From contig NW_027266343.1 of assembly GCF_022045235.1 (NCBI RefSeq), forward strand, positions 55,676,001-55,740,000: a stretch of 64,000 nucleotides of DNA. The letters are read 5' to 3'. Shown here one piece after another: positions 8,005 through 47,930 of this stretch (its first letter is position 1; every line of letters begins with the position of its first letter). Below the pieces are notes generated by a model, which saw only the letters and a list, made by a program, of their open reading frames with translations, had not been told where the DNA came from and did not search any database. The stretch is from Haliotis cracherodii. Lineage: Eukaryota. The position numbers were made by a program, and so were the translations under genes.

Positions 8005-8407
8005 TATGTCGAGAACATATACCAGGTTAAGTCTAACTAAATCTATATGCTTGTTTGTCCTGGGGAGCTAATCTGGTGTAGGTGGTGGCTGCCATTAAGT
8101 CTTTGTGCAAGGAATTACAATGTGGAATTCAGCTTTATATATGCTGTACAGGGGATCATGTTCTCTTACTGTTTTTGTGTTGTATTTTTTTAGGCAGTGG
8201 CACACATTGTAAACACACAAAGCTTCTCATTTCATGATATGATATTGTCAGCTGAACAGACCCCGTTCTGGCGAGGAAACAAGAAATATGAACTGAGCAG
8301 ACGCGCCATATACTTGGCGAACAATTGATGAAATTTTAGACTTTGAAAAACGTCTGTCTTCCCTTGCGCTGTGTATTCAACACCACAAGTCGTCCTTTGG
8401 AGACTGA

Positions 8408-8667
8408 ACCGTAAAGATTCAGGGGTAGAATAGGTCTTCAGCAACCCATGCTTGCCGTAAAAGGCGACTATGCTTGTTGTAAAAGGCGACTAACCGGATC
8501 GGGTGGTCAGGCTCGCTGACTTGGTTGATGCAGGTCAATGATCCCAATTGCGTGGATCGATGCTCGTGATATCAATCACTGGATTGTCTGGTCCAGATTT
8601 GATTATTTGCAGACCGCCGTCATATAGCTGGAATAATGCTGAGTGCGGCGTTAAACAACAAACCAAC
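8408..8667 (+). mobile_element. Retroposon family B (about 260 bp, no tRNA head)
   Basis: ggggtagaataggtcttcagcaacccatgcttg...cactggattgtctggtccaga...gctgagtgcggcgttaaacaac-(aaac)n. Confidence 0.88.
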
Positions 8668-16421: not shown

Positions 16422-17295
16422 ATAACAGTTTGGCGAGTATGTGAAAATATGTAAACACTATTCCAAATGTAAATGCGTCTTGACAAGCGTGCTCAGTACT
16501 ATAGCGATGATATCGCTCGCAGTGGTGGGTGGTGATAGAAAAAATGCCAAAATACAGACGGTGATCGAGAAAAATGGCCAAAATGGAAGATTCAGCTATT
16601 TACCCAGTCGTAGGGTAATTACTGACAAATAAGTAAAATGACTGAAAATGACTCCTATTTTATCCAGATATTACTGATAAGGCATTGCCGGTTCTTACGT
16701 TAGGGTTTTAACAATTTGAGTGCAGCTGCTTTGTATTTCAGAGACAGACTTATCTATTAGATGACTATGTTTGTAAACCAATTTGCAGCTCTGATAAGGC
16801 AAATAATGATCATCAGAATTAAATATTACAATGCCTCATTGGAAAATATCTTCTGGAAATTAAGAAGTTATGGGTGAAGATTTTGTAAACGAAATGAGCT
16901 ATTAGCATGATGAAGGGACGTTCATGTTCAGTGAACATGTTGTGTAATTAAGACTTTCTTGTGATAATTGCTTTAAGCAGCATGAGAAGTATTGTGTGAA
17001 GACCTGCCCAGAATATAGTCTCCATGTATTATTGAAGAGGCTTTTGACTAACAAGGATTTGAACGATTAGCCTTTAACTGACGTTGATCGATTTTACCTG
17101 TTTGGGAAATTACAGATAATTAGACTAATTAGATTTCCTGTTTTATTGATTAAGTTTAGATCAACATTTTTTGTAAAACAACAGTTGAATTCTGTCAGGA
17201 TATATCTGATGTAGGAAATTCTTCCATGACCGCAGGAAATCTGCAACCATCTTGGAGATAGATCGTACTTGTTTTGAGTTTTAATTAGTTGCCTT

Positions 17296-17535
17296 TATGG
17301 GGAGTTGGGGTTAGAATAGGTCCCCACCAACCTATTCTTGTTGTAAGAGGCGACCATATGCATTGGGTGGTCAGACTTGGTGTCTTGGTTGATTGTGTGT
17401 CATCGTACCCAGACAACATGATTCCTTGTTTACGATACCAGTAACTGGATTGTCTGGTCCAGACTCGAATATTTACATTCCACTGTCGTGTAGCTGGAAT
17501 ATTGTTGAGTGCTGCGCTAACATCAAATAAACATA
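17296..17535 (+). mobile_element. Retroposon family B, divergent subfamily
   Basis: Single cttgttgtaagaggcgac hairpin; altered 5' stem. Confidence 0.8.
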
Positions 17536-18776: not shown

Positions 18777-18917
18777 ACTTGTTTGCTTGTTTGTTTGTTT
18801 AACGCCACACTCAGCAATATTCCAGCTATATGACGACAGTCTGTTAATAATCGAATCAGAACCAGACAATCCAGTGGTTGACATCAAGACCTATTCTACC
18901 CCGGATCTTCACGGGTA
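18777..18917 (-). mobile_element. Retroposon family B, internally deleted
   Basis: (ttgt)n, reverse-complement tail and head acctattctaccccggatcttcacgggt. Confidence 0.85.
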
Positions 18918-20648
18918 GCATGGTATTGAAATGGGAAAGCAGTGTTTGAATTTAATTTGGATCCTGCGGTCCTTCATATAAATCTAGGGATCTTAGCAAT
19001 TTGACGACCATACACTGAAATGTAAAAATCAGGAATGATCCCTACTCAACAGAGGAATTGCATGGCCCACGTATGATATTTTGGATGAAGTGGGGCGTAA
19101 GGTTTTGGTTCCAAAACCATTCTATCTCTGGCAGTCTGTTTTCAAAGCTGATCTTTCTTCTCATACCCGATCAAAACATTTATATTTCATGATTCCCTAC
19201 ATTTTGAGTATATTTTGTGGGTCATATTGCAGGGAACCGATGCACAATTCAGCAGTAGACACTGGTTCTAGTTATAGGGTCAGAACCAAAATTCCCAGTA
19301 GTTTATATTTTTACAGAATTAATGTCACATCGACAATAATCTATTACCCACAAGGGTATTCTCTTTACTTGTGAAAGTGCAAATGTCAATAAGATATGTG
19401 ACCAACCATGAGATAAAGGAACCTTTTGGGGGGAAAATCACATTTCATCTTCTTATTTTTTGGAACTATAGTGTTTTTGGAACACAAACATACAAATCGC
19501 CAACTTCAATTATTATTTATTACAGAGAAAATGGCATCAATTATGTGGACTCACTTTCTGCAAAGTCCAATTTTCAGACATTTACAACTGTTTATGTAAT
19601 AATTGGAGTTTTTAGATATACTGTCAGATTAATTGAGAGTAGACATATATGCTGAATTTTTTTAAAATGATGTCTTCATTACATTAGGCCACACATTTTT
19701 GATTTTTTATTTCCCTGGCCTGCTGCCCCCACTGAAAAGCAGGTGGAAAAGAAATAAATTAAACATTAAAATATTCATTTTTATAATGTCTCATGCTGTT
19801 ATAAATGCAGTATAAGTGATTCAAGAAGCCAGCACATATAAGTTAAGATACTCATGAAAAACACATTCTTAGATTCATATAATACACAGAAACAAAACTG
19901 ATAACAAAAACATGAAATATTGAATGAAAAAAAAATTGCAGCACTAGCAACCATTTAAAAGCCAAATACTTCTGGAGATAAAAGATTTTTTAAGATCTGT
20001 TTTCTTCTAAAATGTGGCATTACATATCGCATTCCAGAAGGTAAAAGAAAACAGGGATAGAAATAAACGCTCACCCGTAGGCCCAAGGCTAGTAGAAATT
20101 ACCTCTGGCCAAGATTATAATTCTACTCGCCTGGAGGACCTGTAAGTGTTATCACATGTGCTGTTCAAGATCCATTGTCAAAACTGTCATACACTGACAC
20201 CTGTTAATTCTTTGAGGTAAGAAATTTAATTTTAGACTATTAACCTTTTGTATGGCTAGCCAAAAACAATTTCAATAGTCCTGTGGGCTTATGTTGTTTT
20301 TGAGTTAATGTCCCTGGAAAACACACCCACCAAATGTGGTTTGGCCCTGATAAAATTTTATTAAAAAGATAAAAAATGTGCATGTCCTGAAGGACGGAGA
20401 AATAATCAAAGGGAACCCTGGGAATTTTACTGACCATTAAAATGATTTTTTTGAGTAAGATCTGTTTTTGACATTTGGAGAACTCTACCACAATTCAGTT
20501 GAAAAGGTGAAAATACAGGAGTGGAATAAAGATATGATGTGAACAAGTGGAAATGGCTAATTGTTGGAATGGTTCTCTGTATATGAGACCGACATTGATT
20601 GCTGCAATGAGGTTGCTGTTATAACTGAACGTGACTCAATTCTTAATG

Positions 20649-20846
20649 ACCCGTGAAGATCCGGGTAGAATAGGTGTTCAGCAACCCATGCTTGCTGCAA
20701 ATGGCGACTGTGCTTGTCATAAGAGGCGACTAACAGGATCAGGTGTTCAGGCTGGATTGTCTGGTCCAGACTCTATTAAGTACAGACCGCCATCATACAG
20801 CTGCAATATTGCTGAGTGCGGCGTTAAACAATAAACAAACAAACAA
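20649..20846 (+). mobile_element. Retroposon family B, internally deleted
   Basis: 13-bp TSD caattcttaatga. Confidence 0.9.
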
Positions 20847-32217: not shown

Positions 32218-32544
32218 TATAAATGACTGTGTTGCATATCATTTTGTATTGATTCGTATCGATTTACAATAGTGGTATTGTGACTTGACATATCATCGAA
32301 TCATTCCGTCCAATCAAGGCCAATGTATGCATATATTTTGGCATGGAAATACCTTGATGTCCCACATTGTGTGGAATCTGCTTGTCTCCATGGTGATTAC
32401 ATGTTGGTACTGGTCCCGAGCAAATGATGCTTGTCTCCATGGTGATTTCAGGTTAGGATTGGTCCCCAGCAAGTAATGCTTGTCTCCATGGTGATGACAT
32501 GTTAGGATTGGTCCCCAGCGATCTATGCCAGTCTTAATGGATTG

Positions 32545-32600
32545 TCACGATATGGCTAAAATATTGCCGATGTGACTATAAACCTTAACTCACTCACTCA
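32545..32600 (+). mobile_element. Tail-only (5'-truncated) retroposon insertion
   Basis: cacgatatggctaaaatattgccgatgtgac..(actc)n between perfect 12-bp TSDs cttaatggattg. Confidence 0.75.
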
Positions 32601-32624
32601 CTTAATGGATTGAGTGTTCAGGTT

Positions 32625-32785
32625 CATTGACCTTGTTGAGTGTGTGTCATCATCCTCTGGTGGAGTAGATCGATGCCCATTTAACAATTACTTCATTGTT
32701 TAGTCCAGACTATATTTACGTACTGCCAGCCGGCATAAATCTGGACTATTGCTGGAATATTGCTGAGTGAGACGTTACAAACAAG
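32625..32785 (+). mobile_element. Retroposon family B, highly diverged
   Basis: gtagatcgatgc..gtccagac..gctggaatattgctgagtgagacgttac. Confidence 0.6.
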
Positions 32786-33044
32786 CCTTTGTGTCCCAAA
32801 CAATTCTGTCACATGTTCTCAAGAATCTTCTGTAACATGTACCCAATAATGTACTGTCACAGTTCTATCTTTTGTAAGTCCAGAATAATAGTTTTTATGT
32901 CCAGAACACAGCCTATGAATTGCACTCTCAGCATTAAATTGGCTATCAGACATATTTTATTGGTATTCTGTGGTATAAACAATTCATTCAATACAGATTT
33001 CTGTGTGGAATTATCTACACAAAGAAAGAACTATTAACAACAAG

Positions 33045-33715
33045 ACCTGTGAAGGTCCGGGATAGAATAGGTCTTCAGCAACCCATGCTTGCCGTAAAAG
33101 GCGACTATGCTTGTCGTAAAAGGCGACTAACAGGATTGGGTGGTCAGGCTCACTGACTTGGTTGATGCATGTCATCGATCCCAATAACGAGGTGACCGCC
33201 TCCATGGTCTAATGGTAGAGCGTCCGCCCGGAGAGCGGAAGGTTCGGAGTTCGATCCCTGGCCACCTCATACCAAAAGACGTTACAAGATGGTACTTGTT
33301 GTTACCCTGTCTGGCGCTCGGCATTAAGGGGTTAAAGCAAGAACTGGTCGGCTCGGAGTCAGTATACTGTGTCTGTGTGGGGTATTCATGTTAAACTGTG
33401 TCATGGTATCTCAGTGGGTTAGCACTTTAAATCGGCATCATTCCGGTCTAGTACAAGCAGCCACACACACACGTACATGCACGTCGCTATATAAGTGCAG
33501 TAATCTTTGACGCGACGTTAAACCCCATTTCACCTCACCATCACAATAACGTGTATCGATGTTCGTGATGTCAATCACTGGATTGTCTGGTCCAGACTCG
33601 ATTATTTACAGACCGCCGTCATATAGCTGGAATATTGCTGAGAGCGGCTGAAAAGAAGACGAAGAAGTCCTTGGCAGTTATTCAGACCAACAAACCAACC
33701 AACCAACCAACCAAT
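33045..33715 (+). mobile_element. Retroposon family B split by a family C SINE
   Basis: 5' part 33045-33189, 3' part from 33544. Confidence 0.88.
33190..33543 (+). mobile_element. SINE family C (V-SINE-like), full length, nested in a family B copy
   Basis: A/B boxes, V-like domain ataccaaaagacgttacaagatggtacttgttgttaccctgtctggcgctcggcattaaggg; TSD caataacg (33182-33189 / 33544-33551). Confidence 0.9.
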
Positions 33716-38715: not shown

Positions 38716-38985
38716 CACCTGTGAAGATCCGGGGTAGAATAGGTCTTCAGCAACCCATGCTTGCTGTAAAAGGCGACTGTGCTTGTTGTGAGAGGAGGCT
38801 AATGGTTAGGGATGGTAAGACTCGCTGACATGGTTGATGCATGTCATGGTATCCCAATTGCGTGGATCGACGCTTATGATGTCAGTTACTGGATTGTCTG
38901 GTCCAGACTCGATTATTTACAGACCGCCGTCATATAGCTGGAATATTGCTGAGTGTGACGTTAAACAACAAACAAGTAAACAAAC
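38716..38985 (+). mobile_element. Retroposon family B, full length
   Basis: Consensus match; tcatgtt repeated at flanks. Confidence 0.9.
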
Positions 38986-39772
38986 ATTCATGTTCACCTG
39001 AGTTAGCAAACTGAACTAAGTTGCAAAGCCTGATTTGATAGCCTACGACTTGTGAAGTCAATTAACAACTGTAAATCATGAACTAAATGCATCGCCAAAT
39101 GAATGCGAGTGTTGACCCTTGACTTAAAGTGCATCTTGAAATTAATGAGGTTAGCCCTACCTTTGATCTTTAAAAACAGATCAGCAAACAATAACACCAA
39201 CACTGTAGACATTGATCGCCCTGAATAGCTCCCCTATTGCTGATCCGACATTAAGCAATAATCACTCTCTCTGTAGACATTGAATTCCATGATATTGTAT
39301 AGGGTTGTAGCACTTCTGCACTGAACCGACATGACAGTATACTTCAATGTGTCCCGATAATGATGTCGATCTATGATGTGAGCAAGGACACTCATATTTT
39401 TTGCGTAAATTTCATGCTCGTGTAGCCTCTATGAAAGTCCTGTGATGGGATTCAAACCATAGACCTTCCATCTTGACCAAGGAGGTTAACAAGGTCAAGG
39501 TCATCTGTCATCTGTAGGATGACTCCATGCCCTGTTATGCTCGCAATAATTTCATAATTTGCAATATGTATCACAAGATAATCATAAGTAACGCTCTGTT
39601 TCCAATATGTAATCAATATTTTGTTGTTGAGTGAACGGGCTTCCAATGTTTGTGAATAGACATTGAATCATTGGATCATTAATCTACTTGCTTATCTCAC
39701 GTGGAAACCATTACATGTTTATGTCCAATGTTTTGAGGGCGAGAAAACCTTTTGTCTCATTCATGCAAGAAA

Positions 39773-43837: not shown

Positions 43838-44010
43838 GGGGGCGGTCTGGTAGCTTCGTGGTTAAAGCGTTCTCTCGTCACGCCGAAGACCCGGGTTCGA
43901 TTCCTGACATGGGTACAATGTGTGAAGCCCATTTCTGGTGTCCCCCGCCGTGATATTGCTGGAATATTGCTAAAAGCAGCGTAAAACCATACTCACTCAC
44001 TCACTCACTC
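43838..44010 (+). mobile_element. SINE family A
   Basis: Near consensus; TSD tgttctgg. Confidence 0.9.
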
Positions 44011-44124
44011 TGTTCTGGAGAGTATAAAGTTGCTCTTTACAGGGATGGGCAGGGAGTGTTGGCGTGGGTGTCGTATGGAACGTCATGTGTATTTGGGTGT
44101 TGGACAGGTGGCAGGGGTATGCTC

Positions 44125-46270: not shown

Positions 46271-46740
46271 CATGCTATCAACTGGTTTGACTAGATTTAC
46301 AATCCAGATTGATATGGCGGTAATTTTGATAATGACAAATATTGATGAATATATGTGGAGTATGTGTGTATTCCTGATAAATATTCCATGAATACAGCAG
46401 ACATTCCAGCATACCACTGTCATTATTTGTCTTGTCCAACATTGTTGTTTGTGAAGATGTGTGTGTAGTTTCATTTCATTTAAACGCTCATGAGTTGTTG
46501 TTTTTAGGGGGGGGGGGAAATATCACAGTACAGGCAGTGAATGAACTTGTTGCCCAAGTTGACAGGCCAGGAGGGCTTGTTACAAACTATGTTGCAAGCT
46601 CTTATCCTATTTTACCGACTTACTTTATGACTACAGCCTACATACTTTCAGTTAACTTACATTTGTTCTGTGTGTTTCAGAACATTACGCTAAACAGCGG
46701 CAAAAACTGCTAGGCTGCTTGGTACTATACATATTTCTGA

Positions 46741-47012
46741 ACCCGTGAAGATCCGGGGTAGAATAGGTCTTCAACAACCCATGCTTGCCGTAAAAAGCGA
46801 CTATGCTTGTTGTAAGAAACGACTAACGGGATCGGGTGGTCAGGCTTGCTGACTTGGTTGATGCATGTCAGCGATCCCAATTGTGTGGGTCGATGTTCAT
46901 GATGTCAATGACTGGATTGTCTGGTCCAGACTCGATTATTTACACACTGCTGTCATATAGGTGGAATATTGCTGAGTGTGGCGTGAAACAACAAACAAAC
47001 AAATAAACAAAC
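46741..47012 (+). mobile_element. Retroposon family B, full length
   Basis: Consensus match; tttctga at both flanks. Confidence 0.9.
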
Positions 47013-47617
47013 TTTTTTCTGACGTTTATGGTGGTTCTCCGACTTTCACACACATTGCTAATAACACATGTGCATATCAGTCATAATCAGTGTACAGCAA
47101 GGAGTCAGTTTAGTACTTTATGTGGGTTTCTGATAAACTACGAAATGAAAACGAAATGACAACAGACCTTTGACATTAAACGATGATGACTTGAGGCAGT
47201 TATACGGAAATGTTACTGGCCCAGTGTAAAAGTCACTTGCATTTGGCTAGTGGGCAGGCAGTTATTTCATCCCTGAGTACAGGCATTAATATTTTATGTA
47301 TGTGATATTCATAAATATATATCACACACTATAGTTTAGTGCACACTATAATATTAGTGTTAGAAATAGGCACTAGTCCTGTAACCCTTTCCAAACTGCC
47401 CAATAATTAAGGTATCATAAGGACTAGTAGAAATTTGCCCCATTTAAAGGTTTTGCTTTATTTAATACTAATAAGGACTAGTGGACTAAAAATGTTAATT
47501 TCTGCCTCTGTATTGATTATATATGGGCCATGTCCTTGTTCAATGTGTATGTCTTGGAAGTGCATTGGTCTTTCCCAATATCATGTAATTGTGTTATTTT
47601 AAGCCTGTGAATCATGT

Positions 47618-47930
47618 CACTCCCCCCCTCAGTGATGTCAGTGTTACCTTGTGTGGCATTCCCCCATCAGTGATGTCAGTGTTACCTGGTGTGGCACTCC
47701 CCCATCAGTCGGTGTTACCTGGTGTGGCACTCCCCCGCCAGTGATGTCAGTGTTACCTGGTGTGGCACTCTCCCATCAGTCAGTGTTACCTGGTGTGGCA
47801 CTCCCCCGCCAGTGATGTCAGTGTTACGTGGTGTGGCACTCCCCCGCCAGTGATGTCAGTGTTACCTGGTGTGGCACTCCCCCGCCAGTGATGTCAGTGT
47901 TACCTGGTGTGGCACTCCATCAGTGATGTA
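47618..47930. repeat. About 38-bp minisatellite (cactcccccgccagtgatgtcagtgttacctggtgtgg)
   Basis: About 8 copies ending just before the 47963 acceptor. Confidence 0.92.

Follow-up and report, generated by a model that had tools for sequence, protein, structure and literature searches.

A predicted double-pseudoknot RNA module heading LP-type SINEs of Haliotis cracherodii, and carried by LINEs and viruses, as a putative exoribonuclease roadblock

We analyzed a 64,000-nt stretch of the Haliotis cracherodii genome (hereafter, the window) and found that its LP-type SINEs begin with a predicted RNA module of ~75 nt, for which covariation supports five helices and two H-type pseudoknots in series. 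The same module stands in the 5′ UTRs of LINEs of this genome and in the 3′ UTRs of six RNA viruses and, whatever its function, is a well-supported structured RNA without a match in Rfam. Our best explanation, which we hold to be evenly poised between right and wrong, is that the head acts as a putative xrRNA-like roadblock of a new fold to 5′-to-3′ exoribonucleases, which would trim read-through RNA to unit length from the base of helix P1.

The SINE type and its head are already published. The LP (“LINE promoter”) domain of Matetovici 2016 (PMC4758252) comprises ~70 bp common to the 5′ ends of Nimb-17_LMi, I-3_DR, and RTE-9_CPB; it heads the SINEs Hdi_LP/Hmi_LP, Lsa_2, and Sgl_LP and is found in pectinoid MESC heads, and a promoter role was proposed for it, with a call for experiments. 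By its sequence, the head of the window family is this LP domain. Both the published LP-SINEs and the window family have a ~70-bp LINE-derived head in place of a tRNA, TSDs, and a tandem-repeat tail; in the window family we find homology to Nimb-17-type LINE 5′ ends, a TSD directly flanking the head, and a tandem-repeat tail. The published length of Hmi_LP (255) fits the window family, and the scallop “Nimb-17 homology” segment in Fig. S2 of PMC4758252 shares the family's hairpin and, judged by eye, its helices as well, whereas the hexamer AATATA quoted there is absent from the window-family consensus (Hdi_LP was compared by description only). The passages of that paper on LP give neither an RNA structure nor a viral occurrence. 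New here are the double-pseudoknot fold, the viral copies, the fusion of ribozyme and module, the start ruler that holds in several families, and the tests of the two pseudoknots. Searches of Rfam and of the open-access literature did not turn up the first three of these.

The figure of about 17 copies given by an earlier sequence-only reading of the window was borne out: 16 copies were covered by 19 strong BLAST matches, and with one further, old copy near 32434-32787 the total is 17 (Table 1). The repeat unit is ~260 bases long and, as that reading described, its tail is (AAAC)n. In a 250-kb sample taken at round coordinates, 53 matches of at least 80 nt were found, from which a rough extrapolation, with fragments counted, gives ~2 × 10^5 LP-type SINEs genome-wide. 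TSDs, previously ascribed to all of the roughly 17 copies, were shown for 4 window copies (7-13 bp, one with a mismatch) rather than for every copy. The reported lack of A and B boxes holds insofar as there is no perfect A box, but the head contains A/B-box look-alikes with 2 mismatches; in addition, a single B-box-like nonamer lies at +149 in the SINE body. No tRNA was found in the window copies of the family, nor the combination of A and B boxes that marks a tRNA-headed SINE. The possibility that the copies are simply truncated tRNA-headed SINEs is not borne out either: TSDs abut the head, and the base preceding it is random.

Table 1. Coordinates of the SINE copies and of the predicted structural elements of the head within the window.
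Feature	Position	Strand	Evidence
LP-type SINE copy: module head, body, LINE-like tail, (AAAC)n	46741..47012	+	BLAST
5′ TSD, 7 bp, occupying the place of the usual first G	46734..46740	+	
3′ TSD of the 46741 copy	47016..47022	+	
Full-length copy, 12-bp TSD, starts at G	8406..8666	+	
Full-length copy	38717..38986	+	
Full-length copy, interrupted by a tRNA-headed SINE at about 33186-33539	33044..33653	+	
Copy with intact head, internal deletion, 13-bp TSD	20648..20840	+	
Copy with the head's first 31 nt joined to the tail	18779..18916	-	
Older single-hairpin relative	17292..17533	+	40 bits
P1 5′ strand (pseudoknot 1), predicted to pair with 46754-46757	46742..46745	+	5/20000 permutations
L1, single U (19/21 rows); elements start 6 nt before L1	46746..46746	+	
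P2, 7 bp (46747-46753 with 46766-46772); loop is P1 3′ strand plus invariant AGAAU 46760-46764	46747..46772	+	double changes 7/7 pairs
P3, 4 bp (46773-46776 with 46782-46785), one pair mutated here	46773..46785	+	double changes 4/4 pairs
P3 loop CCC, the P4 5′ strand	46778-46780	+	
P5 hairpin, first (degenerate) unit of 22-nt duplication	46787..46801	+	
P5 hairpin, second unit; GUCG-UANRAGG-CGAC near-invariant in intact members, decayed here	46809..46823	+	
P4 3′ strand GGG (pseudoknot 2), after YAA linker	46828..46830	+	0/20000 permutations

From 5′ to 3′, the predicted module consists of P1 (4-5 bp, formed by the 5′ end with the P2 loop), a single U, P2 (7 bp), a variable loop ending in AGAAU, P3 (4 bp), the P5 hairpin, YAA, and P4, in which the P3 loop pairs with the 3′ tail, and one register is common to the family representatives. 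In the 24 rows fitted to the model, which was seeded without 5′-truncated copies, 90.9% of 452 cells are paired and 12 of 19 pairs show double changes (0/500 shuffles), against 33-49% of cells paired in slid controls. An alignment restricted to animals (15 rows, aligned without structure) gave similar values, with 90.5% of cells paired and 9 of 19 pairs changing on both sides (0/500 shuffles). All pairs of P2 and P3 covary, together with one pair in P1, and P5 is invariant; covariation of P1 is weak (80% paired, double changes in 1/4 pairs). Once 3 decayed SINE rows were dropped, comparison of cognate with permuted pairing over the remaining 21 rows gave 5/20000 for pseudoknot 1 and 0/20000 for pseudoknot 2, whereas pairing of the 5′ end with the tail is unsupported (6157/20000); because the rows are related by kinship, all these shuffle and permutation counts overstate significance and are not probabilities. 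Pseudoknot 2 has 3 bp or fewer in 10 of the 21 rows and is nearly absent from three viral members (L190, L192, and L207). The evidence for the fold is covariation, since single-sequence folding energy alone is unremarkable (z of -1.0 for the window copy, range -0.35 to -2.8, with pseudoknots not modelled).

From viruses to animals, conservation of 90% or more is seen at roughly 30 positions. The search patterns force part of this, including some of the invariance of P5 and AGAAU, but when the P5 loop was left free in the scans, every structured match again had the same loop, T-loop-like within its near-invariant hairpin. The stem proposed in the sequence-only reading (GAAGAUC/GGUCUUC) is P2, all 7 pairs of which covary, and the absence of covariation that would have spoken against that reading was not observed, the covariation being strong. 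The proposed pseudoknot is likewise supported, and a second one was found in addition: the loop does pair with the 5′ CCCG, whereas its suggested alternative pairing with the downstream AACCC is weak (700/20000); the partner of the AACCC Cs is rather the GGG that follows CUAAC (0/20000). The two 22-nt hairpin units are present (46781-46802 and 46803-46824) but decayed in this copy. As read from the copies, the tandem hairpin is a local subfamily duplication: about 24 of 32 sampled copies have two hairpins and 4-5 of 32 have one, as do the homologues from other organisms and viruses.

The module has no match to any Rfam family searched, including the xrRNA models in that set. The earlier failure to fit it to hammerhead, HDV-like, or twister ribozymes was reproduced, with no Rfam ribozyme match at E values up to 5-10 (pistol, hatchet, and others included). 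Identity with an HDV-like ribozyme was rejected, as the module has no P3/L3 and Rfam HDV matches end where it starts; identity with class 1, 2, or 3 xrRNAs was rejected because the secondary structure differs from those of these classes (a three-way junction with PK1/PK2, or a stem-loop with a 3′ PK) and because an Rfam match is lacking.

The 5′ end of the elements is fixed relative to the fold. As the sequence-only reading claimed, copies share a start nucleotide: six begin at the G or A of (G)ACCCG (8406, 18916 on the minus strand, 20648, 33044, 38717, and 46741). In each of three retroposon families, the first base of the element, whatever its identity, lies 6 nt before the L1 U, and the base preceding it is unconstrained. 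In the genome, the second base is A in 4811 of 5687 exact SINE heads, and the first base is G in 3831 of these 4811; the TSD ends directly before the first G in 8 of 10 evaluable G copies. A G directly before CCCG mostly results from an A-to-G change against a G background (111 copies lacking a preceding G versus roughly 290 having one, the latter extrapolated from 100 listed of 438), and SINE copies starting with T have no diagnostic change in common (best p 0.0025 among 1226 tests). Two metagenome families share the start position with different first bases (A in 25/36 and G in 16/18, respectively), and in a third, small family the start is blurred by one base. In one metagenome family, 15 extra loop bases shift the downstream conserved letters while the start stays unmoved. 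The bases around the start are variable, and the invariant ones lie at least 6 nt inward.

The proposed derivation of the head from a LINE 5′ end proved correct, in that the module occurs in the 5′ UTRs of RNase H-bearing LINEs of this genome (G000) and in locus L239. Among 20 loci around RNase H matches, 18 contain a LINE 5′ end followed by ORF1 and by an APE-RT-RNase H ORF2 of 1230-1261 aa, and all 18 begin with a predicted HDV-like ribozyme of 57 nt, to which the module is joined without spacer. The 57 nt match the whole of model RF02682 (E 0.0026; 27.5 bits, below the gathering score of 44), and the representative L293:2441-2497 has P1 with G1-U, P2, P3, L3, GG, and J4/2 GCUAA, with the element starting at G1. 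In this locus and in L294-L310 the ribozyme is minimal, with a vestigial P4, and young, intact LINEs of the I/Nimb type begin exactly with it. LINE TSDs abut the ribozyme G1 in 11/16 cases, overlap it in 3/16, and leave 1-2 extra bases in 2/16; a single added G was found in 0/16. The ribozyme is 98% identical among LINE copies whose ORF2 is about 81% identical, and its sequence is kept in all 43 head matches of 37 further loci. Exact LINE heads number 731 in this genome; only 4 are without the two terminal Ts of the ribozyme (a test that detects about half of random flanks), 3 of them through C-run slippage and 1 abutting an inverted SINE piece, so that at most 1/731 starts at the module. Since LINE copies keep the upstream ribozyme, in LINEs the module is neither an efficient self-cutter nor the main start site.

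Between LINE copies, the module is 92% identical, whereas ORF2 reaches 81% and the remaining UTR 69%, which hints at a second job of the module or at cassette exchange. The ribozyme is joined exactly at the SINE start position, which suggests that a LINE formerly starting at the module later acquired it; L239, a LINE of the same kind with the module, has no Rfam ribozyme match upstream (a single copy whose 5′ end is not fixed by a TSD). As the SINE tail resembles LINE tails, the SINEs were likely mobilized by an I/Nimb-type enzyme, and no LINE with the exact SINE tail was found among 30 RNase H loci. A block of ~200 nt after the module (L293:2573-2770; L239; L231; L108) is 90% conserved in the LINEs of this genome and recognizable in those of other hosts, and is probably another structured 5′ UTR domain. 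The young LINEs are also clustered, with about 70 heads in 0.85 Mb at G000:C2:20.9-21.75 Mb, mutually nested (L299, L301, L306, and L308), which may be a piRNA-cluster-like trap or a hotspot. Three times on C1, LINE heads are paired back to back about 690 bp apart (L326/L327 and L329-L332).

To assess the occurrence of the module elsewhere, the hairpin was searched as an exact 16-mer, yielding at least 120 metagenome loci, 7 viral loci, and 21 prokaryote-assembly loci. Of the last, 17 are chance matches, and the other four (L227, L231, L233, and L239) lie in MAGs or a symbiont scaffold and represent retroposon DNA of animal type. With a covariance model trained solely on the animal rows, six RNA viruses (L210, L216, L189, L192, L190, a virus also represented by L036, and L214) score 42-72 bits and the DNA-virus locus L207 scores 63 bits, whereas decoy loci matching only the search pattern reach at most 23 bits. 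In all six RNA viruses, the module lies on the sense strand in the 3′ UTR, 4-121 nt after the last long ORF, with 18-110 nt between the end of its first copy and that of the contig; in L189 and L214 it occurs twice in tandem. The viruses encode a tombus-like RdRP_3 (L192 and L216), an RdRP_4 (L210), a peptidase A21 capsid (L190), an S-domain coat (L214), or an unclassified ORF (L189). The viral stems are rewritten in sequence with pairing kept, and because they are compensated in RNA viruses, the module is selected as RNA, without a DNA stage or a LINE protein. A looser viral pattern gave 4 matches, 3 of them already known, and no further member, and a second revealed none among the 120 matches listed (78 loci scored by the model). 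The ORF of L189 (L031) spans at least 959 aa, is RNA-virus-like without a Pfam match, and has an SDD motif before A/B-like motifs, an order that suggests a permuted polymerase. In the 212-kb DNA virus record, a length that would fit an insect iridovirus, the intact module (L207:1981-2054) separates two ORFs on the same strand, close to a gene for an NAD-dependent ligase.

How SINEs with neither promoter nor tRNA acquire a defined 5′ end is the question these observations touch. A 5′ end can be fixed by three routes, namely a promoter, a cut, or a stalled nuclease, and we prefer the last because the viruses, the ribozyme-bearing LINEs, and the start ruler count against promoter and cut. SINE copies would be read through from host transcripts and trimmed to unit-length RNA starting at the P1 base: Xrn1 or Xrn2 would unwind P1 and brace against the conserved junction where P1 meets P2 (L1 U, a G-C pair, and AGAAU), ~5-6 nt from the active site, with the P3/P4/P5 domain and its T-loop-like hairpin buttressing the junction. 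The trimmed RNA would then be copied by the I/Nimb-type LINE reverse transcriptase via the common tail, and in viruses the same fold would leave a short 3′ RNA. Ribozyme products carry a 5′-OH, which Xrn1 does not attack, and because such ends resist the enzyme, LINE copies should keep their ribozyme, as observed; the ribozyme-plus-module LINE is in this respect a natural built-in control.

Class 3 xrRNAs of plant viruses (ST9a, SCNMV, and PLRV) bring Xrn1 to a stop “precisely at the base of P1” (PMC12397905), so that a start at this position fits a roadblock. The path from the exoribonuclease surface to its active site is given as ~5 nt (PMC12081666), which fits the 5-6 nt that separate the element's end from the conserved junction. 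Because xrRNAs have been described in 3′ UTRs, also as tandem copies (PMC8374639), the viral placement of the module, a pseudoknotted fold in the 3′ UTR that is tandem in two of the six RNA viruses, fits as well. With class 3 (PMC12397905) and flavivirus class 1/2 xrRNAs (PMC12081666) the module shares, besides these features, a length of about 55-75 nt and an end at the P1 base, and the ST9a xrRNA contains a T-loop (PMC12397905). It differs in having two H-type pseudoknots in series without a three-way junction, in a minimal P2 loop of 12 nt plus the closing pair (versus ~15 nt in class 1; PMC12081666), and in its presence in host retroposons. It is also far more conserved in sequence than the known xrRNAs, which hints at a bound host factor, and several further observations count against a roadblock: the module is conserved behind the ribozyme, where protection would be redundant; pseudoknot 2 is optional; P1 covaries weakly; and the first G could be a copied cap. 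The chances are balanced that animal retroposons and unrelated viruses have in common a new xrRNA class, that LINE and SINE 5′ ends are made by host 5′-to-3′ decay rather than by a promoter or a ribozyme, and that ~10^5 copies of such an element reside in this cellular genome. If so, a decay roadblock would be a third route to a 5′ end beside promoters and ribozymes. A 2021 review counted xrRNAs in cellular RNAs among those still to be found (PMC8374639), and we found no relevant report linking xrRNAs with retrotransposons in the open-access literature. That one 75-nt fold recurs in I/Nimb LINEs, in SINEs from several animals, in RNA viruses whose polymerases differ, and in a DNA virus implies that an RNA device has been exchanged among them.

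The main rival, to which we assign a minor but real share of the probability, is that the module is a cap-independent translation element or binds another host factor, recruiting initiation factors or ribosomes to uncapped RNA; it would serve as a 3′ CITE in viruses, act behind the ribozyme in LINEs, and bring SINEs to ribosomes to capture LINE protein. This role is compatible with a roadblock, possibly as a second function beside it, and we retain it because of the unusual conservation, the optional pseudoknot 2, the first G, and the conservation behind the ribozyme. The position of the module in the viruses is consistent with a 3′ CITE. Tombus-like and toti-like viruses, which are uncapped lineages, are among the hosts, the module directly follows a ribozyme that leaves uncapped RNA, its hairpin with the T-loop-like loop is near-invariant, and in the DNA virus (L207) a 615-codon ORF begins about 145 nt past its end. 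In L293, by contrast, it ends about 550 nt before the ORF1 ATG, SINEs encode nothing, and neither the fixed distance from start to fold in unrelated families nor the exact fusion point of the ribozyme is explained. Tombusviridae 3′ cap-independent translation enhancers and the mobile s2m motif are modular conserved 3′ UTR elements exchanged between viruses; the module has no Rfam sequence match to them, and we know of no 3′ CITE or s2m that marks retroposon 5′ ends. An RNP or 5′-junction signal bound by the LINE protein, with the viral copies as passengers or replication signals, is very unlikely. The R2 5′ pseudoknot is bound by its LINE protein, and in retroposons the module is always at the 5′ end and is conserved behind the ribozyme, but the compensated stems in six unrelated viruses imply selection without a LINE protein, and the module is also found on an RTE-clade element (PMC4758252).

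Self-cleavage and transcription, both raised in the sequence-only reading, fare worse than the roadblock. A new-class ribozyme cutting at the P1 base is unlikely, even though HDV-like ribozymes at retroposon 5′ ends (R2, RTE, and L1Tc; PMC5786205) likewise produce an exact 5′ end from read-through RNA at the base of a helix, and the module has many invariant bases, two pseudoknots, and a CUAA after the hairpin that resembles HDV J4/2. The LINEs retain an HDV-like ribozyme directly upstream, the module being a separate downstream unit without P3/L3/P1.1 or an Rfam ribozyme match; the sequence varies both around the site and in the adjoining loop; and viral contigs run through the site within the 3′ UTR, where cleavage would detach the 3′ end from a genome that is presumably linear. 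An internal Pol II promoter with a capped start, as in the published LP proposal and possibly dual-use like Pr77 of L1Tc, is quite improbable. It would account for the fixed start, and the non-target first G of 80% of SINE heads could be a copied cap, in contrast to the LINE junctions of the same genome, which lack it. However, the stem sequences are free, RNA viruses carry the module without a DNA stage, one family starts with A and has no G excess before it, another shifts its conserved letters by 15 nt with the start unmoved, and LINE heads virtually never start at the module.

Other repeats accompany the LP-type family. The tRNA-headed SINE inserted at 33186-33539 has a (CA)n and (CACCT)n tail and is like the Haliotis MESC SINEs described by Matetovici 2016. 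Short tRNA-headed SINEs with a related tail ending in (ACTC)n occur at about 2445-2615, 43840-44015, and elsewhere in the window; (ACTC)n is also the repeat of the intact LINEs, of which these SINEs are likely partners. Satellite-like tandem arrays are built from the first 39 nt of the head or from longer units (L363, L364, L400-L402, and L488-L496). Finally, window positions 47600-47930 contain a tandem repeat with a unit of about 35-40 nt in an intron-like stretch.
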